Origin: Isurus oxyrinchus
Taxonomy: Eukaryota
Direction of reading: 5' to 3'
Length of the DNA stretch: 64,000 bases
NCBI GenBank assembly: GCA_026770705.1
Contig: JANJGN010000009.1
Coordinates: forward strand, 164,238,001-164,302,000
The translations under genes and the position numbers were made by a program. The notes below the pieces were generated by a model that worked only from the letters and a program-made list of their open reading frames with translations, was not told where the DNA came from and made no database searches. Within the stretch, counting starts at the first letter, position 1. Each line of letters opens with the position of its first letter. Below, piece after piece: positions 1-36,205 of this stretch.

Positions 1-289
1 GTGGTCTCTTGCCTCAGTCGTCAGGGAAGAAGGGTGGAATTTTACACCCCCATTGCGGCAGGGACTGGGCTGTAAAATGCAGCCAGCCATTCTAAACTCC
101 ATGCACTCCAGCAGGACCATAAAATCCCACTGTCACAAGGCTCAGACCAAAGGCTGTCAGCAGCAGGTAGAAATTACACCTGTAAACTGTGTTTGTACTG
201 GAGTTGTCAGCAGGGACTCAGTTGCACTCTGACCTTTGATGCCAGTCTTTTGTAGTTACAAGTTCCCCTTAAGAGTTAAAATTCGGGCT

Positions 290-710
290 GATACCATGAT
301 CCAGCTCTGAGGTAGTGCTATACTGGTGGTGGTGCTGCTGTGTAGATGAGGTATTAAACTGAGGATCCACATCCCCCTTAGGTAGATGTAAACAATTCCA
401 GGGTATTATTCACAGAATAGGGAAGTTCTCCTGGCGTCCTTGAAGCCTTTATTCCTCAACCAATACACACAAATAGGGAGCAGGAGCAGGCCATTTGGTC
501 TTTTGAGCCTGTTAATGTCACTACAAAACAGATCATCTAGTGAATGTTTTACTGATGTTTGTGGGGCTTTGCTGTGTACGAATTAACTTCCACGTTTCTT
601 GATATTAAAACTGTGGCTTTACTTCAAAAAAGTACTTCATAGGCTCTGAAGCACTTTGGAATATCCCAAGGTTGTGAAAGGTGATGAATCAACACAACTT
701 GTTTCTTACT
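290..710 (+). mobile_element. Deu-domain SINE (SacSINE1/AmnSINE-like); paralogous copy at 30430-30850
   Basis: ctgaggtagtgct...gatgaggtattaaactgagg core and gcactttggaatatcc..ggttgtgaaagg tail shared with about 10 copies in the window. Confidence 0.65.
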
Positions 711-1281
711 TTTTGAAACAAACCATTTATTAAAATACATCTGAACCAATTATCTGAGTGCAAACTGCAGGGGGGGGAGGGGGAGGGAGGAGCCAGTCCC
801 AGCAGCAAGGTGGTCATTATAATTAAATGGTCAGAAAATCACTGGCAGGTTTGAGACATTCATGGTCAGTGGGTGAAGGTTGTCATCTTTACTGCAAGCT
901 CAGAAAACTGCCCCCAAAGTGCAGAAAGTGACCATTGCCAGTATTAGGATGTGACTGTTTAATGTGTTCACATGAAATTCATGTCAAGAAAGTGTATCTC
1001 TGGATTGCAGTCCACCAACTTGAGCCCTTATCAGGCCCACTAGTAACTCTGTCCCACCAACTCTCAGATATAGGAAAGAAAGTGAAATTACCAGTAAAGA
1101 TAGACCACCAGGTATCAGCAACCTCTCCACTTGTGACCAGAGAGGGGTAAATTACACAGAAATCAATTCTACCAGCCAGGCTTTTCCTCAATTAATGAGG
1201 TTCCATTTGACAATGATGCTCTCTCAGTTGAATACAAGTGAAAATGAGGTGAATCTCAATGTTATTCCCTTGTGTCAACAG

Positions 1282-1399
1282 GACGTGAGTATTGTTGTGA
1301 AGCTTGTACAAGAGTATCACCAACTACATACTTGACAAGTACAGATATAATTTCCACTACCAATCGAGCCACAACTTCAGATCCCGAAAATGCTGAAAG
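1282..1399 (+). CDS. Stalk exon of upstream paralog (GREYCCEACTRVSPTTYLTSTDIISTTNRATTSDPENAE)
   Basis: Paralogous to 31421-31538; same 118-nt length, splice sites and phases; open frame. Confidence 0.82.
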
Positions 1400-2210
1400 G
1401 TACAATGTTCTCATGGATTGGCATTGCTTCCATATGTGAGAGATACAATTGGCCAAAGGAGTGAAAGTTGTTCATTAATTGTAAAGTAGCTCATCAGAAT
1501 GGAAATGGTGGCTGGGTTTATATCATGCTGTTGTGTTAGCTTCTTAATGAGGCTGCATTTTTCTGTTGGAAAATACAAGCAAGGAGTGAGCTTTTCCATT
1601 GTGTTGCCGCTCAGATGGTGTTTTTTGCCTTATTCACCTTGATTACTTCACCGCTAAGGTAATCTCACAGTGTGTGAGGAGTTGTACTTGTCAAACTTAC
1701 CTTGCTGCTGTCTACACTGACAGAGTACTTGTATTTGGGCTGATGAAAAGGAAGAATTAGCGTGATATATCTGCACATCCCTTGGTTTCACTAATGAGAG
1801 ACATCTTGCAACTCTGGTCCCATTTCCATATTATTAGCCTAAGCTGTTGACAATAAGTAGCAGAAATTGTAGTCCGATGTAAACACTCAGGAATCAGGTC
1901 TTTGAAGTTACAATGGTGATAAAGAGAAAATGCCAACTAAATGTCAAACAGAAAGAGGGACAGTTGGAAATGGACAGCAGGTATGTCCGCAGCTGTGGAG
2001 AAAATAAACACGTTCATGGTTTGGGTGCAGACACTTCTTCAGAATTCTAGTCCACACACGAAGCGAAGCAGGTCCACTCACCCCACAGATCCCAACTGAG
2101 CTGCTGAATGTTTCCAGAATCTTCTGTTTTCCATTCATATTTCTAGCACATGCAGTGCTCTTACTTTTATCCAGATTATTGTCAATGATTTAAAAAGGAT
2201 TGAAAGTCTA

Positions 2211-2743: not shown

Positions 2744-2834
2744 TTACATTATCTGGGATGTGATACGCTGGGTGCTCTTTACTCTCCTGGTGATTTGTGC
2801 TGTTTCAGGCACATGGTGTACGAGAAAATCTAAG
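2744..2834 (+). CDS. TM exon of upstream paralog, activating type (SYIIWDVIRWVLFTLLVICAVSGTWCTRKSK)
   Basis: Acceptor cttttgctcag, phase 2 matches the stalk exon; donor AAG|gtgaga; hydrophobic helix with Asp/Arg near its N-terminus. Confidence 0.82.
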
Positions 2835-3914: not shown

Positions 3915-4860
3915 GGGCAGAATCATCTGAGATTTGCACAAAGTGCCGTAGTGAGTGGGAAAAAGGACATCCCGGGTGCGAAAAAACAGCACAGACCAAG
4001 ACCCTGATTTCCCAGTTTTTACTGGTGTTCCATGTTAAAGTATATGAGCCCCACTCAGGCCCGTATTCTTATTTCCCATTTTTTACTGTTTTTCCCTTCT
4101 GGGATATTATCCGCCGGCTGCAATGGCAGATTTTCACACCTTATTATCCTATTCCTGGCACGTCCCACCTCATTAATTATGCGTTCACTGGAAACACACC
4201 GGGTCGCTGGTGGGAAGGCCTCTGACGCGCCACCCCACCGTCACCTCAGGCCTTCATTTATCCAGACGCCCTATTTAAAGGCCGTTTCTGCAGAGAGATG
4301 GCTCTCTCTCTAGGCATCAGAAACTGCTAGGAATTCATAGCTGCCAAAGGGAGGAAACATGTTGCATCCAAAATTTAGCACTGCCTCCCTCAGCCTACTG
4401 GGCACTGTGAGAGCTGCCGTGAAGTCCTCTACCCCAATTCTAGGCGAAGACCAACAAGCATGGCAACAAATCTAGCATGGGAGATGGTGGCAGCAGTGGT
4501 CAGTGCCAATGCACTGCTAAAGAGGACAGCCACCCAGCGCTGAAAGAGGATGAATGGTCACCTTCTTTCTGCTAGGTTAAATCACTTTTCTCATCACTCA
4601 CAACTCAAAAACCCATCACACATTCACTGGGATCTCACTCAATACCAGTTCAAAGGACATCACCATTCTCCCTCTCACACACACCTTCCTCTGCCCTGCC
4701 GTTCCTGTCCTCATCCATGGCACCACTTACCACCCACACGTGCCGGGTGCCCTTCTCATGTGACCTGGCAGGCACCCTGCTTACGCTCTCTCCATCTGTA
4801 TTCCTGCAGAACAAGCTGGATGATGTCAGGGATCTGACACTTACTGAGAATATAGGAGTC
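3915..4860 (+). mobile_element. Truncated Harbinger element with decayed Myb/SANT exon
   Basis: GGGCAGAAT terminus; 4340-4575 homologous to the minus-strand Myb exon at 10058-10302. Confidence 0.65.
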
Positions 4861-6613: not shown

Positions 6614-6655
6614 TTCCAGACACTCAACGGATCAGATCCTCAGAGCTTGACCTAA
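6614..6655 (+). CDS. Candidate short terminal exon of upstream paralog (FQTLNGSDPQSLT*)
   Basis: Acceptor gattttcag, phase 0 fits the TM exon donor, AATAAA about 110 nt downstream; tentative, alternative acceptor at 10798. Confidence 0.3.
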   Translation, partial: FQTLNGSDPQSLT

Positions 6656-11708: not shown

Positions 11709-11864
11709 AGGTGGTCTCTACTGGATTCTACTGGACTCATCAGAAATCCAGTAGGGATTCCAGTTGCTTCAGCTAAATTCAGCTGGAACCACAGCACCTG
11801 TTCCCAATTGGACTAGGAGTCAGAGAGGGACAATGCAAGAACTGGGGCATAAACTCTCATTCAG

Positions 11865-13286
11865 TGGGTGGTGCAGTCTGAGGAGGACCTGAGAAGGCTT
11901 CGAGAGAAAGGTGGGAAAGTGGGAGAAAGGGAGACAGAGACAGAAGCATCCATTACATTGTCCCCAGAGTTGGTCACTCTGGCAGAATCAGCATCAGCCT
12001 CAGGGAAGGAGGCAACAGTGGAGGAGACGACAGTGGTGGAGGTGGAGGTGGCGATAGCAGCGGAACTGAAGGTTGCAGTGAAGTCGGCAAAAACAGTGGA
12101 GAAGGATGAGGTGGAGCTGGTGACTGAGGAGGCTGAGGTGGAGGTGGTGACTGAGGAGGTTGAGGTGGAGGCAGTGACTGAGGAGGCTGAGGTGGAGGCA
12201 GTGACTGAGGAGGTTGAGGTGGATGCTGAGGTGGAGACGGTGACTGAGGAGGCTGAGGTGGAGGTGGTGGCAGAGGAGGCTGAGGTGGAGGCAGTGACTG
12301 AGGAGGCTGAGGAAGAGGCAGTGACTGAGGAGGCTGAGGTGGAGGCAGTGACTGAGGAGGCAGAGGTGGAGGCAGTGACTGAGGAGGCTGAGGTGGAGGT
12401 GGTGGTTGAGGAGGCTGAGGTGGAGGCAGTGACTGAGGAGGCTGAGGTGGAGGTGGTGGTTGAGGAGGCTGAGGTGGAGGCAGTGACTGAGGAGGCTGAG
12501 GTGGAGGCAGTGACTGAGGAGGCTGAGGTGGAGGTGGTGGTTGAGGAGGCTGAGGTGGAGTTGGTGGTTGAGGAGGTTGAGGTGGAGGCAGTGACTGAGG
12601 AGGCTGAGGTGGAGGTGGTGGTTGAGGAGGCTGAGGTGGAGGCAGTGACTGAGGAGGCTGAGGTGGAGGTGGTGGTTGAGGAGGCTGAGGTGGAGGCAGT
12701 GACTGAGGAGGCTGAGGTGGAGGCAGTGACTGAGGAGGCTGAGGTGGAGGCAGTGGCTGAGGAGGCTGAGGTAGAGGTAGTGGTTGAGGAGGCTGAGGTG
12801 GAGTTGGTGGTTGAGGAGGTTGAGGTGGAGGCAGTGACTGAGGAGGCTGAGGTGGAGGCAGTGACTGAGGAGGCTGAGGTGGAGGCAGTGACTGAGGAGG
12901 TTGAGGAGGAGGCAGTGACTGAGGAGGTTGAGGTGGAGGCAGTGACTGAGGAGGTTGAGGTGGAGGCAGTGACTGAGGAGGCTGAGGTGGAGGTGGTTGC
13001 CGAGGCGATGGAGGTAGTGAATGTGGGGGTGGAGGAGGAGACATCAGCAGCGGCAGCAGCAGAGACAGTGACTGAGGCTGAGGAGGGGGAGGCAGCGGCT
13101 GTGACAGTGACAGAGGGAGAAGCAGCGAAGGCGGCAGCAGCAAAGGCTGAGGCCACAGTGAGGGAGGCTGTGGAGAGGGAGGTGGAGGTGGGGCAGAGGC
13201 AGCGAGGAGACGGTACGAGACCAGGAGCAGCAACAAAACCTGCCTTGTGGTTTGTGAGGCTCAGGGCAATGGCGACTGTGAGTTGA
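11865..13286 (+). other. Long Glu/Val/Ala-rich open frame, possible exon or captured gene fragment
   Basis: 472 codons without a stop; acceptor-like ctctcattcag just before 11865; non-repeat flanks are also Glu-rich in the same frame; no ATG start. Confidence 0.4.
12108..13010 (+). repeat. 27-bp minisatellite (GAGGCAGTGACTGAGGAGGCTGAGGTG), about 33 units
   Basis: Direct reading; unit translates EAVTEEAEV. Confidence 0.97.
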
Positions 13287-13928
13287 TATCTTCCATGTGC
13301 CATGTGTGTGTCTCCGAGTCAGCGCACCGGACCACACTGCTTCTGCCCGATTAGGGCGCTTCAGTGGAGTCCGACACCAGTCCAGTGCCACCCAGCTCCC
13401 ATTCCCGAGGACAGGTGATGGAACCTGCCCAGTGCCAGGATGAGCTGCTTGGTAAGATCGGGAGGTGGGAAGTAGAGAAGGCAGCCGACCAGGAAAAGCT
13501 GGAGGATATCTCCAGGATTACTGACTGTCTCCAAGAAGAAACTCTTGTAGCCTTCAGGCAGGGTATATATATGTTTATATAGCTGCAATTTACAGTTACC
13601 TGCCACATCCCTTTTAACACTTTCTAATGCAGCATCGCTCTGATCAGAATCAGATTTATTGGGGTTGTGCAAATGTCTCCCCAGACTCTGATATAACAAT
13701 AAAAAGCTGCTTTTTCCTTTCCAGTTGCAGTAAGAGGAATGTCCCAGCCTCTCAATGTGACAGGGCAGCCCAGGACTATGTCTCTCAGTGCAACACCCAG
13801 GAACACACACAGTGCAGCCCCCACATTGATTGTTCCAGTTGTGGGGGGAAAGCCTGCATGTGGAGTAAGTGTACAATTGGGAAGATATTGATTCTCACAA
13901 CATCTCCACGGCTTTAAATCAAATTGAG

Positions 13929-20583: not shown

Positions 20584-20623
20584 ATGATGTGGATTTTGAT
20601 TCTCCTCATTAGTTCTCTGCCCG
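20584..20623 (+). CDS. Exon 1, signal peptide (MMWILILLISSLP)
   Basis: aaaATGATG start, hydrophobic stretch, donor G|gtgagt in phase 1; continues VSGALW in exon 2. Confidence 0.85.
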
Positions 20624-23600
20624 GTGAGTGACAGCCAGAGCTGGATGTTCCGATATTCTGAGTTGGTTTAACTCTCGTGCGCTGGTTATACAGGAGATGT
20701 TTAAATATTTGGAGACATGCAAAGGCACAAGAGAGGTCTTGGGCACAGTGGGTAGTGTCTCTGTATCTGAGCCAAAAGCTCTGTGTTTGAGTCCCACTTC
20801 TGTTCTTGTTGAGAATGGAAGGCGCGTTCTAACCAGGACCAACAGATTGATTATCAACCTGAAAATCTTCCAACAGACCGAAGGCTGGTGGTAAGAGGGT
20901 TTAAGATCCCAGTCCAACATGTTTGATGTGGAGTGGTGCCGCTCATTCTGTTGTCTCCGGAGGTTAGTGACCTGTTCCAGGGAAAACAAGCTTTGGAAAG
21001 CAAAAGTAAACATGTGCTTTGTCTGCCGCATCCGTCTCTAGATGTGGGAAGTCTCCTAAGTCTAAAGGCACAAAATAGTCAGCAAAACCAAATGAGTAAT
21101 AATTGTGAAGTATTTTATTACCCTGTGAATTAACTATCACACCATGGGAATAGTTAACAAATAAACTGAACTGCATTATTAATTATGAATGATAAGTAAA
21201 GGAGAATTAAATTTTCAGAATGCTATGCAAGCAACATTTTGAAAATGAAAACCTTTTTTAATTGGTAATTTTCAATATAATCTGATGTCCAGTATAGACT
21301 GAAGACTGCAGCGGTAATAATCCCACAAATAAAACATGTCCCAAGTTGGCGAATATTTCTGTTTTTTAAAGTACAGTTGATGAAATATTGTGTTATGAGG
21401 CTCTCTCAGTGACACTGTTCCTCACTGGTAGATGGTTGGTCTACATCACTCTTCTCATAAGTAGCCTTTTCTTGTTCATTCTTTAACTTTAAGAAACTAG
21501 ATTTTGCTCATCACTCAGTATTGCCACCTCTCCATCATTTCGATGAATCTATTTTATAACACACAATGTTAAACTCCCAGCCCCATCTGCTCTTAACCAC
21601 CTCCCCAAAATAGTTTGTGCCTCTAGCTGATCAATTTAATGCAGAATACTCGATGTACTTATGGACAGGAAACTGAATCATGTTTCTGTCTGTTTGGCAA
21701 TCTTCTTCTTTTCAATCCTTCCTCTTTCTGATCTGATCTCTTTCCCATTCCCTTTTCATCTGTAACTTTTCCTGTATCTTTTTCCTTTTCTTCACTTCTC
21801 TCTAGCCATTTAATTATTTTCAATCTCTCTTTTGTTATTTTAGTGCAAACTCTTTCCCCACAGCATGAGTTTCTCTCCCAGCAAGGCCATTGGTCTCATG
21901 AAAGTTCACGTCAAGGCATCCAAATCCCTACCTCAGGAATCCATCCATACTGTAAGGCCACCTATCACACAACCTCGCAAACCTTCAAGACCTTCAAATC
22001 CTACCTTTGGACATCCCTAACTCATTCAAGATCTGAACAACCCCTCCTGCAAGGACACAAACCTACCCCGCACCCCACCCATCTCAGATCAGAGCAGGGA
22101 ACTGTCGGATCCTGTGACCCCCTCCACACTGCTCCCCAGCCGACTGCAAATCAGGCCTGTCAATCAGGCTGGTTTCTGGCTGTGGAACCTCCTGATGATG
22201 TCAAACGCAGTCTAGGGTGAAACCCCAAAATATGAGGCAGAACCCCAATTTCCAGGTTCCCTCACTCTACCAGCCCCTGCCAATATGTCAAGAAAATGTC
22301 CCAATTATCTCACGAGTATATCATTGTCTGAGACGTGCTTTGGAACCACAGTGAGGCTCTGATAAGTGTCTATATGAATGATTACTCTCATCACAAACTT
22401 GATGGAATTTAACTCATTAAAATGCATCTGTTTGAATTAAGCAGTTATTTCCAGTTCAATTCCTGAAATGTTGTCTCCTCAGTTTCAGGTGCATTGTGGG
22501 CAAAAGAGAGAGTAACAGGAGTTGTGGGAAGAGCGATCACAATAGAATGTCACTATGATGCGTGGTACAAGTCACATATAAAATATTGGTGTCGCGGCTG
22601 GACTCGCCAGTGTAATGTTGTAGCATCAACAAATAGGCCAAATGGAAGAATATCGGTCACAGATAACAAGTCACAAGGAATATTTATTGTTACTATGAAG
22701 GATCTTCACTCAGGAGATACAGGATGGTACAGCTGTGGTATTGAAGCAACTGGCCACGATCCAATGTTTAATGTAAAGCTACAAATATCTTACGGTACAT
22801 TTCTTACTGTTTTTCTTTATTACTCTCGACTGAAATGTCTGCTCAATGTTTTATCTGGGAGGAAACATGACAGCTCCGATATCCCGAGGCTCCACAGCAA
22901 TGCAGAGTCTTAAAGGTAAAGGGCAGAGGTCGGGAAATCCGACTCATGTTACCCAAACCCAATTCATGGCCTGTCAAACATGTCAGAATTGAACGTTACA
23001 AGTGAACTAAACGGAAATTGAGAAGTTGTTTTGATGGTAAAAGAAGCCTCTTTATTAATTGTTGAGACATTGGGCTGGATATTCAGCCTCAAAGCTGGTA
23101 GGGGCAATTCAGAAAATTCCCCGCTCGGCCTTGGAAGAAAGTGCCCACAAAGGTGGGATTCCCATTGCTGGGAGCTGTGCCCGGGCTGCAGTCTGGCCAG
23201 CCACACCAGGAAGAAATGCAGAGGCAGCCACAGGGGCTGCCGGCTGCGGAGACGGGCTGTTTAAAAGGCCCCTCCTTAATGCCCTTGGACTTTGTAACAG
23301 CTAAACTCAAAACACAAAGGCCCTTCACCCCTCACCCCTCACAGCCCCCAAAGCGGGTGGATGTGAGGGGAAAATTTGTCATGAGGGGGCTTGGAGGTGG
23401 GTGGAAGTGTACAGCTTGAAGTCAGGAGCATGAGGGGGTATAAGGCGTGGGTATAGGGATAGAGGGGGAACGAAGGGCCAAGCGGGTTGGATGGGGGTGT
23501 GACTTGACATAGCGGGCATGAGATGCACCTTTTGAACTTAGCTGTTAAAAGATCCCCTCATGCAGACCAGTGTTTACAGCTCCTCTGAGGGGCTTTGGAC

Positions 23601-26600: not shown

Positions 26601-29600
26601 AAATCAATCTTTACTTTAATTCTTAGACTTGTAAAAACAAACTTACCCTATCTTTATGTCACTTCATGACACCTTTTTACAACCTGCATATATCCCCCTT
26701 TGAACTAAAACAACTCAATTCAAACTATTCCTGTTATTGCTTCATGTACAAATCTGTTGAAGTTCTTTTTTGTTTATTAACATATCAAAACCACATCTTA
26801 TTGTTGACTTTTGACCCTATCCACTGATGAGGCAGTCCACGTCATGGAACCATAACCTTAAATCTGGAGATAGGCTCGTCAGGGATGTCAGGAAGCACTT
26901 CTTCACGCAAAGTATAGTGGAAATCAGGAACACTCTCCTCAAAAAAGCTCTTTAGTTCAATTGAAAATTTCAAAACTGAATGACAGATTTTATCTGGTAG
27001 CAATATTCGGGTTATGGGACCCAGGTAGGTAAATGGACAGAAGATACTGGTCAGTTGGGATTTAATTGAATTGTGGAACAGGCTGAAGGGGCTGCATGTC
27101 CGAATCCCTTTTCCATGTTCTGGAGCCCCAGTTAATTTTTCAGTGGTCTGGGCCTTGTGAGTAACAATGTGCTGTGAAACAAGCTCACAAACAGTTAGCA
27201 TTTCAAAGAGACACTTTCCAATCACCAGGCAAACTGTGACCTGTGTTGTTTCAGAGGACAGTTTGTGACAGTGAAAGCAGTGAAGGCCTGCCAAACCTCA
27301 TTAAAAATGTTGGTGAAAGTGTCACTTTTCTCTGGCTAATCCCTTGACCAAAGATGGAATTTTAATTCCCCTCCCCCATCCTGCATCGGGTTGAGGCATG
27401 ATGGGATTTGCTGGATCCAGAACCTTCTCCAGCACGGCTTGTGATTCAGGAGACACACGAAAGCTTCACCCCCACCCCCAGGCAAATGTTTTATACAATT
27501 TCTCCCTCCCCATGATTGGCCAATCCTGCCCCAAGCAGCAAAGTCACCCTGACTCCCTCCTTGCTGCTGTGCTCCGAGGACACATTCCCACCAATTTCCA
27601 AACTTTTACCGTAACTTTCCTACTTGGAAACCAGCCAAACTTTCAATCAGTGTGCAAGAATTCTGGTGAGATTTTGCTGTTAAATTCGGTACAAACTCAA
27701 CATTCCTGGTATTTCCAGCTTTCTCACCACCCCACACACAGTCCCCCCTCTCGTCTCCACGTACCAGGGTTGAAGTGTTCTATCGCAGCATGCAGAGAAC
27801 CAGAGCCAATCACATTTACATTCTTATCCAAAGCTACAAAACATGTAACCGATATCTGACAACATTTTGCCCTCATTTTACCCTTTGCTTTTCTAAGATT
27901 CTCTCCAAATAATTCACATTTAACTCACAAACAATGAAACAGCATTGGAGGCTCACTACCAGCTACGAAGAGATATTGTTCACCATGATATTCATGTTAA
28001 CATACTCTCAGTATCAGAGCTGCTGTTCTGATCTGGAGACCTGATTTGTTCTGATATAATGGCTGAAAGGGTAACTCAGGCCTCTAAGAGGATGGAGAGA
28101 TATGGGGATGGATTTTTAAAAAGTATGGGGTCAGGATTAGAGATGGGTGGGTATGAAATTTGACACCGCTGGTCTCCATGCCAATTTACCATTACAATCT
28201 CAAGCCCGAAACATTTAGAAAGCGGGTGGCTTGCAGTCAAGTGGTGGGCAGCTAACTTAGGAAATAACATTTACCAAAGGGGCCAATTAAAGACCCATTC
28301 CTGCACCCACTGGGATTCCATTCAGCAATGCAAGCAGACCACATTGCCCCTTCAGGATCATGGCCCGGCAGCTGCCGGGTTTTGAAACATAAAATAAACT
28401 TACCTGGACTTTCCCCTTGCTGTCTCCATGCTCAGGTCAGCAACTCCCACCTCACCTGGTGAGGCCCTCTAGCATCAGGAGCCCGCCCTCTGTCCCTGAT
28501 TGGATGGTGAGCCCAGTTCCAGTCTTTTGATTGGCTAGAACATTGAAAATTGCAGTGGGCATGCCTAAAGAATGGTGAATGGTGTCAGGACCTGAAACTA
28601 TCTCCCATGTCCAGTTCCCAAACCCAAATTTAACATCCACCCCATAGAGTGGTAGATGTGTTGGTGAGATTCCAACATGGCAGAGCCTGGCTGAGATGAA
28701 GTGCAAAGTTTGAAGAGTATTTGATTATTAAATGTTCAGTATCTGAATGTTTCTTTCTTTCCAACAGAACCCGTGTCTGTTCCTGTGCTTAGATTTTCAT
28801 CACCGCTAAATGTCTCATGTTCTGGGAGTTCAGTGTCCGTCTCCTGTGAGTCTGTCCAGGGATCCCTTCCCATTCCGTACACATGGTATGAAAAGACCCT
28901 GTCTGAAGATTCAAAGATCTCTGACACCAATAAACTGGATCTACATTGTCAATCCTTCAAACAGCAACATCATCAATATTACTGCACAGCCTCAAATAAT
29001 CAGGGAGTAAAATCCAGTGATACTGTCACTGTTAACTTAACACTCATGAATGTAACAACGAAAAGCTGCAGTTATGTGATACAAATTGGAAACATTGGTA
29101 AGTGTTACTTTCTACAAACAATGTGGCGAATGAATGTTTTAAATTCATGTCTATCCAAACTGGTCACTGGTTCAGTTCCTTCAGTTTATCTGAGAAATTG
29201 CAACTGGCCAAATTCACTCTCTCTGGTTCCTCAAACATTCTGAACAAGGTCACTAAGTTGCATTTTTCATGAAAAATGGACAGGATCAGAAAATATCCCC
29301 AAAACATGCAAAAATATTGCCGAATCTCCAATAAACCCATCGAATCAAAATAGCATTTGATTGACAGAGCTTTCATAAAGCAATTTGTCTATTTCCAGCA
29401 GATGGAATTGTGAAATGCAACCTCCAACTGTTGTGTCCTAGTTTGGGAAGGATATCACTGATAGAATAGAGAAGAATTGAATTAAAATGAACCCTTGGAC
29501 GAGAGGTTTTAGTCATGAGGAAAGTATCATCACAACTGAGGTGAATGACCAGCTGGAGGACGTGGAAATTGTTAGAAATTTGGATAAGGTAACTCTAACT

Positions 29601-32600
29601 ATTTCCACTAGTCAGTGAGTCAGCAACAAGAGAGCATTAACTTTAAAATTATCACTAAAAGGACAAAGGGAGAAATTTGGAGAATTTTATTGATGCAAAC
29701 TGTTTTTAGGACATGAAATACCCAACTGAAATAAGTTTACAAACAAATTTAATAATAGATTTTAAAAGGGAAACAAATGTATGAGGGTGTGGGAAAAGGA
29801 CAATGAAATGGAATTAAATGAGGAGATCATTCAGAGAACCAGCATTCGAGTGATGGGCTGAATTCCCTCCCCTGTGTTGTAAAAATTCCATCACTCCAGA
29901 CAAAATCTCAACTTATCCTGTCTAAAAAATTAACTATTCCCTCCCCATAAAACAGTGACCCTGGTTCTGAAACAAGGATGACTTTAGCCTATTTGAATGT
30001 AACGGTTCAATTTTCTGCCGAGTGGGTGCAGCATGTTCACCGAGAAACACCAACATGGGCACAAAACAAAGAGAATCACATTTTCACCTGAGCAGCAGGA
30101 GACAGGAATTTACATATGCAAATATATTGACTCTGGTCATGTGGTCTCTTGCCTCAGTTGTCAGGGAAGAAGGGTGGAATTTTACACCCCCATTGCGCCA
30201 GGGACTGGGCTGTAAAATGCAGCCAGCCATTCTAAACTCCATGCACTCCAGCAGACCATAAAATCCCACTGTCACAAGCCTCAGACCAAAGGCTGTCAGC
30301 AGCAGGTAGAAATTACACCTGTAAACTGTGTTTGTACTGGAGTTGTCAGCAGGGACTCAGTTGCACTCTGACATTTGATGCCAGTCTTTTGTAGTTACAA
30401 GTTCCCCTTAAGAGTTAAAATTCGGGCTGATACCATGATCCAGCACTGAGGTAGTGCTATACTGGTGGTGGTGCTGCTACGTAGATGAGGTATTAAACTG
30501 AGGATCCACATCCCCCTTAGGTAGATGTAAACAATTCCAGGGTATTATTCACAGAATAGGAAAGTTCTCCTGGTGTCCTTGAAGCCTTTATTCCTCAACC
30601 AATACACACAAATAGGGAGCAGGAGCAGGCCATTTGGTCTTTTGAGCCTGTTAATGTCACTAGAAAACAGATCATCTAGTGAATGTTTTACTGATGTTTG
30701 TGGGGCTTTGCTGTGTACGAATTAACTTCCACGTTTCTTGATATTAAAACTGTGGCTTTACTTCAAAAAAGTACTTCATAGGCTCTGAAGCACTTTGGGA
30801 TATCCCAAGGTTGTGAAAGGTGATGAATCAACACACATTGTTTCTTACTTTTTGAAACAAACGATTTATTAAAATACATCTGAACCAATTATCTGAGTGC
30901 AAACGGCAGGGGGGAGGGGAGGGAGGAGCCAGTCCCAGCAGCAAGGTGGTCATTATAATTAAATGGTCAGAAAATCACTGGCAGGTTTGAGACATTCATG
31001 GTCTGTTGGTGAAGATTCTCATCTTTACTGCAAGCTCAGAAAACTGCCCCCAAAGGGCAGAAAGTGACCATTGCCAGTATTAGGATGTGACTGTTTAATG
31101 TGTTCACATGAAATTCATGTCAAGAAAGTGTATCTCTGGATTGTAGTCCACCAACCTGAGCCCTTAACTGGCCCACTTCTAACTCTGTCCCACCAACTCT
31201 CAGATATAGTAAAGAAAGTGGAATTACCAGTAAAGATAGATCACCACCAAGTATCTGCGACCTCTCCACTTGTGACCAGAGAGGGGTAAATTACACAGAA
31301 ATCAATTCTACCAGCCAGGCTTTTCCTCAATTAATGAGGTTCCATTTGACAATGATGCTCTCTCAGTTGACTACAAGTGAAAATGAGCTGAATCTGAGTG
31401 TTATTCTTTTGCTTCAACAGGACCTGAGTATTTTTGTAACATTTCTACAACAGTATCAACAACTACACATTTGACAAGTACAGATATAATTTCCACTACC
31501 ATTCGAACCACACCTTCAGATCCCGAAAATGCTGAAAGGTACAATGTTCTCATGGACTGGCACTGCTTCCATATGTGAGAGATACGACTGGCCAAAGGAG
31601 TGAAAGTTGTTCATTAATTGTAAAGTAGCTCATCAGAATGGAAATGGTGGCTGGGTTTATATCATGCTGTTGTGTTAGCTTTTTAATGAGGGTGCATTTT
31701 TCTGTTGGAAAATACAAGCAAGGAGTGAGCTTTTCCATTGTGTTGCCGCTCAGATGGTGTTTTTTGCCTTATTCACCTTGATTACTTCACCCCTAAGGTA
31801 ATCTCACAGTGTGTGAGGAGTTGTACTTGTCAAACTTACCTTGCTGCTGTCTACACTGACAGAGTACTTGTATTTGGGCTGATGAAAAGGAAGAATTAGC
31901 ATGATATATCTGCACATCCTTTGGTTTCACTAATGAGAGACATCTTGCAGCTCTGGTCCCGTTTCCATATTATAAACCTAAGCTGTTGACAATAAGTAGC
32001 AGAAATTGTAGTCCGATGTAAACACTCAGGAATCGGGTCTTTGAAGTTACAATGGTGATAATGAGAAAACGCCAGCTAAATGTCAAACAGAAAGAGGGAC
32101 AGTTGGAAATGGACAGCAGGTATGTCCGCAGCTGTGGAGAAAATAAACACGTTCATGGTTTGGGTGCAGACACTTCTTCAGAATTCTAGTCCACACACGA
32201 AATGAAACAGGTCCACTCACCCCACAGATCCCAACTGAGCTGCTGAATGTTTCCAGAATCTTCTGTTTTCCATTCATATTTCTAACACATACAGTGCTCT
32301 TACTTTTATCCAGATTATTGTCAATGATTTAAGAAGTATAGAAAGTATCTGATTTTTATTTTAAGACAAATCTCTATGTCTGCTCTGTTGTATAAAGTTG
32401 ACAACAAAGATCATTTGAATATGAAATCCATATATGTATGAAACAGTTATTACTTCCACTTTTTTCAGGGAACATCAGGTATTCTTGCATTTGGATTTTA
32501 ATAATTAAAACTGACCCAGTATTAAACAGGGCTCAGTGGTAACACACTCACCTTACATGTCAAAGGCTGTGGGTTCACTTCCGCTCCAGAGACCTCAGCA

Positions 32601-35600
32601 CATTATCTTGGCTGACACTCCAGTGCACTACTGAGGGAGTGCTGTGCTGTTAGAGGTGCCACCTCTCAGATGTGATACACCCAAGGCCCATCTGCTCTCT
32701 CAGGTGGGTGTATCAGATCCCATAGTGACATTCATAGGAGATCAGGGCAGTTCTTCCTCGAGACCTGGGCAACATCACTAAACAAAACAAATTATTTGTT
32801 CATCCAACTAATTGCTATTTGTGGGAGCATGCTGTGTGCAAATTGAATGCCACATTTGCCAAATTACCACAGTTACACTGCATTAAAAATATTCATTGCT
32901 TGTAAAGTGCTTTGGGATGTCCTGAGGTCGTGAAAGCCACTTTATAAATATCTACCTTTAAATATTTCTTTAAACAAATGGCCAATAATCAATTGTGAAC
33001 CAACACTGTCCCTTGTCTATTCTCTGTTTCACAGTCTGATTTACATTGTGCTCGGAGTGCTGGGGGGCATTCTTGTGGTGTTTGCTGTTTCTCTACTTCT
33101 GTACCTGAGGCAAATCAACAAGGGTGAGTTTTTATTTCTCTTTAATCATTTTATTACATGGCAATAATTTGCTGCAGAAGGATAGAATATACAGTTTGTT
33201 GGATCAATCAACAATCACCCATGACCCTAGTATTCTCATTCTGGTCTACACATATTGAACATGGGGCTGAATTTTTCTTTATTCGAGCGGGTGCACACCA
33301 GACCCAAACAAGAATAAAATAGTGCGCGATGAGGTCAGACGAGCGTCTGGACATTATCGTACACTCTGGCGATATTTCTCTCTGCAGGCACGTGCGAGAG
33401 GCGGCAGCACGCCCGCTGACAATGAAGCAACCTATTAAGGCCCTTAATCAATTAATAGAATTGAATTTTTTGCTGCCGGTCCAACTGTTCAGTTGGTTTG
33501 TGGTCGAATCGGCCAATCAGCCTTTGCACTTTTGGCGAAACCTCATCAATGGGCGGGATGGGGTTTTGACCAGTGATTAAAGCAAAAACTTTGAGAACTC
33601 GTATTTAAATGGCCATGGTCATGTGACAAAGTCACATGAGGGGACATGTTTTCATTAGTTTTCAATTCTTTATTTCAATTGTTCAAAATCTTCAGCTCCC
33701 TGAGGCAGCTCTGAGACTCAGGGAGCTTTCACTGTGAGCACGTGCACACATGCACAAACTTGCACGCTTGCCCTCCTCCTGCCCTCACGCCAGCAGTGCT
33801 GAGCGTTGCAGCACGTATTATGCACTGACTGGCCATTAATTGTCCAGCCCGTGTGAAATCGATGTTGGGGCCTGATCGGGGGCAGTGGTCGGCTTCACAA
33901 CCACTCCTGAGCCCACCTGCCATGCCCGCCCGACAAGGGCAAAATTCTGCCCATGGAATAATTAAGTTGAGTATTGCTGATAAAAAATACATTTGAACAG
34001 ATGAACAAGGAGCAGGAGTAGGCCATTCAGCCCCTCGAGCCTGCTCCGTTATTCAATAATGTCATGACTGATCTGATGGTAACCTGAAATCTGCATCCCA
34101 GCTACCCCCCACATAACCTATCACCCCCTTGTTTACCAAGAATCTATTCACCTTCCCCTTAAAAATATTCAAAGACTCTGCTTCCCCCACCTTTTCAGGA
34201 AGAGAGTTCCAAAGACTCATGACCCTAGGCGTGAAAAAATTTTGCCTCATCTCCATTTTAAATGGGGCGACCCCTTATTTTTAAATAATTACCCCTAGCT
34301 CTAGATTCTTCCACAAGAGGAAACATTCTCTCCACATCCAGCCCATCAAGACCCCTCAGGATTTTATTCTGTTGAAGCAATCAGCACTCTCTTCTCATGC
34401 ACTATAAATTGTTGCTCCCTTTATTGTTGGTATTGTTGCAAACTGTCCTGATGAGAACAAGGCAAAAAGCTTTGACAGCGCGTCTCTTTGAATGAGAAAA
34501 ATTGGGCCTCTGATTTCTCCCTGTGATGAATTGCTTGACCTTCCATCAATGACACAACATAACAGGTACTTGTATTCAGGATAGAATTGATCAGTTTTTG
34601 AAATGCTCAATCCTAAACACACGGGAGTTAATTTTCTCTTTCACATCACGGGTGTTAATCTGTCAGAGTGCTAAATAGAAATTAATGGAATGAAATTTGG
34701 GTGTGTTCTCTAATAGACAATCTGTTCTGTCAGACAGTAAACGTCATATGCTGGTAGTGTAGTTGCTGGTTTCTGGTGTGTGTGGCCTATATTACCGAGA
34801 GAAACTAGTGTTACTCTGTTACTTGCTTTAAACTGCTTTATTAACACTGTATTTAAGATAGGTTACAGAGTAGGTATGCCTCCCCTGAGTAGAGTGTTCC
34901 ATCCTCTCTCCCAGGTAAATAGCACATGACTGCCAATTTCATTGATACATCATGGTGTACATCACTCATCAGCATAGCTATTCTATTAACCCATTACACT
35001 ACAAACCCTTTTGTCATGCTATGTATAATTACCAGGCTGATTGTTCAATCCATGTTGGAAATCATTGGTGCAATGCAGATGAACACATTTCCATGAATGT
35101 GGATCAATGTCAGGTTTAGTTACTTGCAACTCATGTTTAGTTTAGAGATTTTAAACATATTAACCATTCCTTGTTACAGTTCTTTCAACAGTTACATTGT
35201 AATTTTTCAGGTCCAAGCTGCATTCCAAGTCAGTGGAGAGACAAGACTCTCCATGATAATCAGGTAAGGATATAAACATTACTTCTCTGAATACTGTTTG
35301 GAAATTTGCAAGCTGGTGGATATAGAATTTACTAAGAACTTACAGCCATTCGGCCCATCTGCACGAGGCTGGTTTTTATGCTCCACACGAACCTCCTCTC
35401 ACCCCTCTTCATCCCACCCTATCAGCATATCCTTCTGTCCTTTACTCTCTCATGTGCTTATCTAGCTTTCCTTTAAATGCAGAAATCCTATTGGACTCAA
35501 CTCCTCCCCAGGGAAGGAATAAGGAATTCAGAAGCAACTTCTTTACCCAGAGAGTGTCAGAATCTGAAATTCGTTACTTTAAGTTAAAGTTCAGGCAAAT

Positions 35601-36205
35601 ACCATAAATAAAGCTGGATAAAGCTGGATAAGCAGTTGAGGGAGAAGGTAATAGAAAGATATTTTGAAGAGGTTGGATGAAGAGGGGTGGGAGGAGGCTT
35701 GTGAGGAGAATGATACTGGTATAGACCCATTGGGCTGAATTGTTTGTTTCTGTGCTGTAAATAATTTTTAATATCTTGTAATCCTTTATAAACTGATTTA
35801 TAATAATGGATATATAGCTTTCTCCTCATAACAGCACAAGTCACTATTCAGGCTAATCAAAAATAAATGCAATCATTTTTTTAATATATTTAGGTATTGG
35901 CAGCAGAGGAAGTGAGCACTCTGTATGCAAATGTAAACCACACTCAAAGGAGCTCGGCAGGAACACACAGAGAGGGAACTGCCGAGTTGAATAATGAGGA
36001 AATCACGTATGCAGCAGTGCAGTTGCAAAAGAAATCGTCTACACAGAGAGGTGAAGGGACAAGTCACTCAGTTAACAACCCGGACAGTGTCATCTACAGT
36101 GGAGTCATGATTCACAACCAGCCCACAAAGAAAAACCCTAAAACTCTATTACATGATACTCCCCAGGAATCTGAAATGGCAATTTATGCTACCGTTACTC
36201 ATTAG
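20584..36205 (+). CDS. Complete inhibitory-type CD300/pIgR-like Ig receptor (MDIR-like), 7 coding exons: 20584-20623, 22483-22794, 28768-29097, 31421-31538, 33035-33123, 35211-35263, 35894-36205; 417 aa
   Basis: All six introns are GT..AG with matching phases (1,1,1,2,1,0). Exon lengths sum to 1254 nt with one open frame ending in TAG. Architecture is SP-V-C2-stalk-TM-ITIM tail. Confidence 0.9.
22483..22794 (+). CDS. Exon 2, Ig V domain of CD300/pIgR/TREM type
   Basis: GRAITIECHY...KYWCRGWTRQC...FIVTMKDLHSGDTGWYSC: canonical V-set Cys/Trp plus the family's extra C-x6-C pair; acceptor ctcctcag, donor G|gtacat. Confidence 0.95.
23680..25212 (-). mobile_element. Harbinger internal fragment (Myb gene exons 2-3) in intron 2
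   Basis: Homologous to 8430-9770; ORF 24509-24805 MSQLLELERPTREHQEG matches ORF 9010-9273. Confidence 0.85.
25323..25770 (+). mobile_element. Harbinger terminal fragment with start of decayed Myb exon
   Basis: gatttgcactaagtgcg subterminal motif as at 3930 and 10545; APRFSELSL peptide. Confidence 0.6.
28768..29097 (+). CDS. Exon 3, Ig C2 domain (FcR-like/PECAM-like)
   Basis: PVSVPVL...VSVSCESVQGSLPIPYTWY...YYCTASN; acceptor ttccaacag, donor G|gtaagt. Confidence 0.92.
30140..32346 (+). repeat. Segmental duplication / conversion tract, copy 2
   Basis: Direct repeat of 1-2207; homology ends after ...gtcaatgatttaa. Confidence 0.97.
31421..31538 (+). CDS. Exon 4, Thr/Ser-rich stalk (GPEYFCNISTTVSTTTHLTSTDIISTTIRTTPSDPENAE)
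   Basis: Acceptor ttcaacag, donor AG|gtacaa; phase 1 in and phase 2 out join exons 3 and 5 in frame. Confidence 0.85.
32525..32960 (+). mobile_element. Deu-domain SINE
   Basis: tRNA-like head (ctcagtggt...gggttc) followed by ccagtgcactactgagggagtgctg core. Confidence 0.7.
33035..33123 (+). CDS. Exon 5, uncharged transmembrane segment (LIYIVLGVLGGILVVFAVSLLLYL-RQINK)
   Basis: Acceptor tttcacag, donor G|gtgagt; 24 hydrophobic residues followed by basic residues. Confidence 0.9.
33264..33952. mobile_element. Harbinger-type MITE, complete
   Basis: TIRs GGGCTGAATTTT / AAAATTCTGCCC; 3-bp TSD ATG on both sides. Confidence 0.8.
33995..34395 (-). mobile_element. CR1 3' fragment
   Basis: ORF 34062-34256 RQNFFTPRVMSLWNSLP. 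Confidence 0.85.
35211..35263 (+). CDS. Exon 6, juxtamembrane cytoplasmic segment (GPSCIPSQWRDKTLHDNQ)
   Basis: Acceptor tttttcag, donor CAG|gtaagg; converts phase 1 to phase 0 as required by the last exon. Confidence 0.8.
35894..36205 (+). CDS. Exon 7, cytoplasmic tail with TLYANV, ITYAAV, VIYSGV and AIYATV motifs
   Basis: Acceptor atatttag, phase 0, ORF 35897-36205; ITSM/ITIM consensus matches. Confidence 0.9.
   Translation, partial: VLAAEEVSTLYANVNHTQRSSAGTHREGTAELNNEEITYAAVQLQKKSSTQRGEGTSHSVNNPDSVIYSGVMIHNQPTKKNPKTLLHDTPQESEMAIYATVTH

Follow-up and report, generated by a model that had tools for sequence, protein, structure and literature searches.

Two copies of a 118-nt exon lie in a 64,000-nt stretch of the Isurus oxyrinchus genome (referred to here as the window), and an initial annotation had described them as diverging much faster than their own flanking introns. 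The question raised by this locus is what keeps a short stalk exon different when the DNA on either side of it is exchanged between copies.

Divergence of the two copies in the window

A single long duplicate was detected in the window by blastn (1-2223 vs 30141-32362, 95.9% identity), and a formal global alignment of 1-2210 with 30141-32350 was used for the comparison of the pair. The alignment returned the 14 substitutions in 118 nt that had been counted by eye (1282-1399 vs 31421-31538), and the 11 changed codons with all 11 amino-acid pairs were as first listed. Not every change altered the protein, as had been claimed, since 13 substitutions were non-synonymous and one was silent. Most of the exon changes (11/14) were located within the 5' half (1282-1340). 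The 160 nt of downstream intron carried the expected 6 differences, and the first 600 nt, thought to differ at about 1%, differed at 10 of 599 sites (1.7%).

Over their full length the introns of the pair differed at 40/1277 upstream and 25/808 downstream sites, and the stalk exon stood apart from both of them (Fisher P 5e-5). By shuffling, the chance of any 118-nt window of the pair reaching 14 changes was 0.007. The exon was thus faster than the downstream and the distal upstream intron, but not than the adjacent upstream intron, the last 50 nt of which (1232-1281) differed at 8 sites (16%). The most diverged 118-nt window of the pair, with 20 changes, began at position 1257. One pair alone was weak evidence: with the silent change left uncounted, 14 of 14 non-synonymous corresponded to P about 0.02.

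The silent change was a third-position C at 1331, private to copy 1 among the 26 genes described below; T was found there in the other 11 genes with Tyr at this codon and in reads and contigs of other samples. This C could be genuine or could stem from a polishing error. Separately, four clustered changes in the polypyrimidine tract (1268-1274 / 31407-31413) were common to 9 of the 12 inhibitory genes and, judged against older paralogues, were derived. They could change the strength of the acceptor or represent one multi-base event. One inhibitory gene, g15I, had the activating-type tract ahead of an inhibitory-type exon.

Two receptor genes of opposite signalling class

Copy 1 was found to be part of g25A, an activating-type gene with a charged transmembrane (TM) segment, and copy 2 part of g26I, an inhibitory gene with an ITIM (Table 1). 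As they belong to opposite signalling classes, the two copies are not equivalent paralogues. The g25A exon runs from phase 1 to phase 2 and encodes three cysteines at codons 4, 5 and 8 (1293-1295, 1296-1298 and 1305-1307), followed by an S/T-rich stalk. Homology between the copies stopped near 2207, the next 100-nt bin held 24 fixed class differences, and the TM exons of the two classes gave no alignment to each other.

Table 1. Features of the two receptor genes in window coordinates.
Feature	Position	Strand	Basis
Duplicated segment (C2-stalk intron, stalk exon and shared downstream intron), counterpart 30141-32346	1..2207	+	blastn 95.9% over 2226 nt
Intronic upstream flank of the divergence island, most marked at 1232-1281 (polypyrimidine tract)	1001..1281	+	Net class divergence
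Stalk exon, activating-type gene g25A	1282..1399	+	AG/GT sites, open frame, both ends spliced in contigs X19 and X20
Downstream intron part common to both classes	1400..2207	+	25/808 pair differences; 9 shared, 2 fixed variants
Activating-type transmembrane exon	2744..2834	+	Joined to the stalk exon in X19 and X20
Predicted last exon, activating gene: 11 residues, without tyrosine motif	6620..6655	+	Conserved open copy after 14/14 activating genes
Leader exon, inhibitory gene g26I	20584..20623	+	Matches the N-terminus of homologues
V-type Ig exon, CD300/pIgR-like (g26I)	22483..22794	+	PDB matches to pIgR and CMRF35-like molecule 1
C2-type Ig exon (g26I)	28768..29097	+	Within the 1211-nt tract identical to activating gene g24A
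Stalk exon, inhibitory gene g26I, with a single cysteine and an N-glycan sequon (codon 6, 31438-31446)	31421..31538	+	Alignment
Uncharged transmembrane exon, inhibitory gene	33035..33123	+	Exon mapping
First cytoplasmic exon, inhibitory gene	35211..35263	+	Exon mapping
Last exon, inhibitory gene: four tyrosine motifs	35894..36205	+	13 close copies in the genome

In the activating TM exon, the encoded helix bears Asp and Arg near its N-terminus; the usual partners of such TM Arg residues are FcR-gamma-type adaptors. Two of the four tyrosine motifs of the inhibitory last exon (ITYAAV and VIYSGV) fit the ITIM consensus. A basking-shark gene model places a putative cytoplasmic exon at 4811, within a repeat; the predicted exon at 6620-6655 was preferred, and no splicing of either was seen in RNA. 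Between the two genes, a 485-codon open S/T/A-rich tandem repeat (11861-13318, minus strand), mucin-like in one frame, was noted; it is probably a minisatellite.

Family membership

Judged by their sequences, the genes are likely MDIR-like, that is, MDIR/CD300-like paired receptors of Isurus oxyrinchus. The V domain matched structures of pIgR (best) and CMRF35-like molecule 1 (E 2e-18) in the PDB and was 57% identical to skate MDIR5 V domains, as expected of a V domain related to CD300/pIgR/TREM. Database homologues were chondrichthyan, the nearest in basking and white shark (V identity 83-88%). The inhibitory gene reached 88.5% identity over 383 residues, and skate MDIR2, MDIR3 and MDIR5 shared 44-61% identity with the array genes. 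Both TM types were also found in skates and other sharks, a correspondence at the level of classes.

MDIRs combine V and C2 domains in modular fashion in a type I membrane protein, and this layout was present in the array genes as well as in the MDIR2/3/5 sequences. The array also proved to be a multigene family with activating and inhibitory forms (14 charged-TM and 12 ITIM genes). The same paired activating/inhibitory logic is seen in CD300. Homology of the array with mammalian CD300/CMRF35 and pIgR is known by the V matches, and the array adds a C2 domain. A C-type or antibody hinge identity was ruled out, the gene being a V-C2-stalk-TM receptor.

MDIRs have been described as multigenic activating/inhibitory receptors (PMC3031540). 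The clearnose skate receptors resemble the shark genes in having a CD300/pIgR-like V and C2 module, a conserved Cys near the beginning of the stalk exon, a TM-Arg activating form and a tyrosine-motif inhibitory form in a multigene family. They differ in having up to three V domains, whereas the shark array has one V-C2 module per gene (two copies with a second C2), and the shark array is set apart by a stalk that was homogenised across classes and then re-diverged, and by its CCxxC motif.

The 26-gene array

A genome search detected 27 full copies of the stalk exon within 0.9 Mb of contig C9. Exons were mapped in the window and in the 1 Mb upstream of it, and 26 complete genes were obtained, 14 with a charged TM (suffix A) and 12 with ITIM tails (suffix I). 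Every one of them had an open frame and AG/GT splice sites. The statistics exclude four genes at the 5' edge of the array that are older and more diverged. Older family members flanked the array at C9 163.13-163.37 Mb and 164.32-164.45 Mb (V 36-81% identical) and included one activating gene that lacks C2, as well as a pair of broken ITIM exons.

The array also contained one V-less inhibitory copy beside an inversion (L013, C9 163456514-163468000, minus strand, at the inversion edge). Its stalk had C4 and C8 and had lost the conserved C5, and an activating-type last exon was located by it at 163467858. Two activating genes, g10A and g22A (L029 and L028; C9 163703290-163706004 and 164129332-164132050), carried an extra open C2 segment with a truncated stalk exon (C4, Y5, C8), located about 5 kb ahead of the second C2, so that they could encode V-C2-C2 forms. 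They were the only two activating genes with inhibitory-like stalks.

Tests for selection on the stalk exon

The variants of the 26 genes were then counted by exon. The stalk had 25 non-synonymous and 3 silent variants (ratio 2.9-3.2, binomial P 0.03-0.045), the V exon 51.5 and 9.5 (1.6-1.8, P 0.04-0.09), the C2 exon 28 and 13 (0.7-0.8) and the activating TM exon 1 and 3. A GY94 model fitted to 15 distinct stalk alleles gave an omega of 3.17 (LRT vs omega 1, P 0.028, from the best of five kappa values), as compared with 1.55 for the V exon and 0.64 for the C2 exon. The stalk value is based on 28 variants in a region picked post hoc, with a tree violated by recombination. The dN/dS analysis with paralogs thus lent moderate support to the positive selection that had been suggested for the exon. 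The protein-change excess of the V exon (22483-22794 and its paralogues) was accompanied by mosaic alleles (g02I, g09A); such an excess is the expected ligand-driven signal.

The silent density of the stalk (0.10 per site) equalled the intron mean (0.11-0.12), and hence the exon is not a mutation hotspot; this candidate was rejected, the share of CpG-type variants being 6/28 in the exon vs 31/265 and 7/45 in the introns. The non-synonymous density was 0.31, i.e. 2.6-2.8 times the intron mean (P 7e-6) and 1.6 times that of the adjacent upstream intron (P 0.012), and the 25 non-synonymous variants compared with a maximum of 23 in any 80-site intron window. Between the classes, stalk exons differed on average by 10.25 non-synonymous and 0.17 silent changes (pN 0.129 vs pS 0.006).

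Cysteines, glycans and predicted structure of the stalk

In addition to the conserved Cys5, which is widespread in homologues, 12 of the 14 activating genes and none of the 12 inhibitory genes encoded cysteines at both codon 4 and codon 8. White shark P0011, basking shark P0002 and an older paralogue (C9:163.16 Mb) carry F/Y4 and S8, so the two-cysteine allele is derived. An activating model from basking shark (P0002) is without the extra cysteines, so membership of the activating class does not depend on them. The CCxxC motif was found in none of 108 distinct homologous junction segments (135 proteins), 8 of which had a second Cys elsewhere. In white shark P0072, inspected by eye, C4 is combined with S5, and C4 may therefore predate Isurus oxyrinchus. 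Three older paralogous stalk exons, considered as diverged donors of the two-cysteine allele, lacked it and were about equally far from both alleles.

The 12 two-cysteine stalks were nearly uniform (pi 0.007) and represented one recent expansion. An N-glycan sequon was present in the stalk of 9/12 inhibitory and 0/14 activating genes, and its position shifted between codons 27 and 6. Because the copies arose by recent duplication, neither the cysteine nor the sequon counts are independent events. For the 11 codons changed in the window pair, outgroups were read as placing the derived state on the copy-1 side at codons 1, 4, 8, 10, 16 and 31, on the copy-2 side at 6 and 13, and on both at 7 and 29, with codon 27 ambiguous.

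The total of ectodomain cysteines was even in 25/26 genes. A further cysteine was gained by a second V class (g04I, g05I, g07I, g12I, g15I, g16A, g17I, g20I, g23A and g25A; C9 163.48-164.24 Mb), and nine of these ten genes lost one at the C2 end, about 11.5 kb away, the ectodomain count staying even. A compensating disulfide swap may lie behind this, or else simple linkage.

In the AlphaFold model of the homologue P0074, stalk codons 2-6 were predicted to form a beta-strand paired into the C2 end (pLDDT by block 67, then 46, and below 50 from codon 9 on); the model is of a homologue with the one-cysteine stalk. With a predicted strand at codons 2-6 and disorder from codon 9, the exon would comprise the end of the C2 domain and a mucin-like stalk. 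The label "hinge" used in the initial annotation is hence too narrow, as the first codons are predicted to complete the C2 domain. A Foldseek search with the P0074 model returned teleost pIgR and Fabs, with no match on the stalk.

Exchange between classes and the divergence island

An exon identical to one in the opposite class was found for V in 9/26 genes, for C2 in 3/26 and for the stalk in 0/26. Association with the signalling class gave P 0.054 for V, P 0.18 for C2 and 0/3000 permutations for the stalk. Recombination was extensive, with a minimum of 57 intervals (Rm) over 3.5 kb, and the longest cross-class tract made g24A and g26I identical over 1211 nt. Exchange took place on both flanks of the stalk exon: variants shared between the classes numbered 46 + 10 + 5 upstream and 9 downstream (single sites may be recurrent mutation), and four-gamete intervals lay on both sides. 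The ligand-binding exons and introns were more alike across classes than the signalling exons, which is the pattern by which merohomogenization is recognized.

With the classes set by TM type alone (14 vs 12), net class divergence was 0.001 in C2, 0.003 in the distal intron, 0.017 at 600-1000, 0.028 at 1001-1231, 0.062 at 1232-1281, 0.049 in the stalk exon and 0.011 in the downstream intron. A divergence island between the classes thus takes in the stalk exon together with about 280 nt of the upstream intron. It is not centred on the exon, the best window starting at 1257, and its upstream part had gone unnoticed in the initial annotation. Sites with a class frequency difference of at least 0.75 made up 8/118 of the exon vs 8/791 of the downstream intron (P 3e-4), and the downstream intron is closer to the class-defining TM breakpoint, yet less differentiated. 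Two-cysteine activating and inhibitory genes differed by 6 fixed and 0 shared variants in the exon vs 2 fixed and 9 shared in the downstream intron (P 0.002). This count excludes g10A, g22A and the V-less orphan, and the exclusion is partly circular because g10A and g22A are activating genes with inhibitory-like stalks; between all 14 activating and 13 inhibitory genes (orphan included) the exon had 0 fixed variants.

With moderate confidence, we proposed that selection keeps class-specific stalks against gene conversion in the paired-receptor array. The suggestion that conversion homogenises the introns while selection protects the exon was the best-supported reading, given the fixed and shared variants above, and it has to be widened, as the island also includes upstream intron.

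The strongest competing account, though an unlikely one, is that an S/T-rich stalk under little constraint (omega near 1) underwent patchy conversion that spared 1001-1399 (about 400 nt) by chance, divergence then suppressing conversion and the two-cysteine haplotype hitchhiking with the recent expansion of activating genes. Relaxed constraint with patchy conversion stays in play because the exon fails the scan-corrected test of class divergence (P 0.14 for 26 genes, 0.17 with the V-less orphan): the best purely intronic window reached 0.055, above the 0.049 of the exon window. The upstream intron as diverged as the exon, an omega above 1 supported at P about 0.03 only, the single expansion of the two-cysteine allele and the disorder predicted from codon 9 onward in the homologue are all compatible with it. 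It has more difficulty with the scarcity of silent differences between the classes, about 3 of which would be expected in an old unconverted tract, with the joint gain of two cysteines at an even parity, and with the clustering of changes in the 5' half, where the predicted strand lies.

We regarded as improbable a diversifying selection that acts on the membrane-proximal region in every copy, irrespective of class, for example by escape from pathogen binding or protease shedding or by tuning of glycosylation, with a class link arising only from the 800-nt distance to the TM breakpoint. Inhibitory stalks do diversify too (4.0 non-synonymous vs 0.5 silent differences per pair), the sequon moves between codons, the V exon has an omega of 1.5 and the changes of the window pair fall on both lineages. 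However, activating stalks are nearly uniform, and the downstream intron, the nearer of the two to the breakpoint, retains shared variants when the exon has none.

Transcripts and assembly

Contigs X19 and X20 (two runs, one other sample), which were taken as RNA by guess, joined the C2, stalk and activating TM exons at GT..AG. They skipped exactly the two predicted introns and had, relative to copy 1, 2 and 1 exon differences respectively, among them the silent position 1331. Since X19 and X20 splice them together, the exon, its allele and the link to the activating TM are supported. The alleles of the window are not an assembly mix, because stalk alleles recur in several array copies and the copy-1 type occurs in the other sample.

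Raw reads of another individual gave a depth of about 8 copies vs 27 (a weak estimate from 4% of the filtered run), and copy number may be variable between individuals or inflated in the assembly. That collapsed or mis-polished paralogues generated the differences is very improbable: the array does hold near-identical duplication blocks (up to 75 kb at 99%), the read depth was low and 1331 C is private, but both alleles were found in separate genes, no block of at least 9 kb exceeded 99.43% identity and the spliced contigs that carry the copy-1 allele come from a different sample. This doubt extends no further than the copy number and 1331 C.

Proposed mechanism

If selection maintains the class-specific stalks, gene conversion and unequal crossing-over would keep the ligand-binding domains matched between the classes, and conversion tracts crossing the stalk would mostly be removed by selection. 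The removal of such tracts would drag the adjacent upstream intron into the island. A shared ligand with opposite signalling would follow from the identical V exons, the TM Arg/Asp and the ITIM motifs, which are the features it is read from.

The selected property is likely the cysteine pair and perhaps the placement of the glycan. The two extra cysteines may form putative inter-chain disulfides, by which activating receptors would become covalent dimers that recruit the signalling adaptor via the transmembrane Arg, with inhibitory receptors being glycosylated monomers. Even if selection holds, this dimer step was proposed tentatively, at somewhat less than an even chance; an intrachain loop or a disulfide reshuffle is the alternative. 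A longer history was considered rather doubtful: in this shark lineage, activating receptors would first have acquired ectodomain and stalk from inhibitory genes through recombination, and a CCxxC resembling an antibody hinge would have arisen afterwards and made them covalent dimers.

Relation to known systems and significance

The divergence of the stalk is a new case of processes known from mammalian paired receptors and opsins. In the mammalian paired receptors KLRC/NKG2, KLRI, Ly49, PIR and DCIR/DCAR, homogenisation is limited to the ligand-binding exons, and the unhomogenised stalk was stated in 2011 to be unexplained (PMC3210942). The two situations are alike in their homogenised ligand-binding exons, distinct signalling exons and a stalk exon that is not homogenised. 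The shark case differs in being an Ig-superfamily array, in having homologous, exchanged intron on both sides of the stalk, so that its own flanks serve as the comparison, and in stalk differences that change the protein and add cysteines.

An exon more diverged than its introns had been regarded as the reverse of the usual pattern; it matches the signature of divergence peaks under gene conversion described for human red/green opsin exon 5 and RHCE/RHD in PMC3924837. An exon peak among low-divergence introns was read there as selection restricting conversion. Unlike those pairs, the shark case is a many-copy, two-class array, its peak straddles an acceptor site and its target residues are candidates. 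A literature search covering few subscription journals returned no account of this array or stalk.

With its 26 copies, in which homologous intron flanks the stalk at either end, the array carries its own internal control. It also offers two specific differences as candidates, the two cysteines and the N-glycan sequon, which are mutable in receptors with identical V domains. The concerted evolution of paired receptors is thereby extended to cartilaginous fish. If the rather doubtful longer history ending in covalent dimers is true, the stalk would be a class-specific oligomerisation switch that sets different avidity thresholds for signalling by the same ligand-binding domains, and such a switch would explain why the stalks of paired receptors resist homogenisation.
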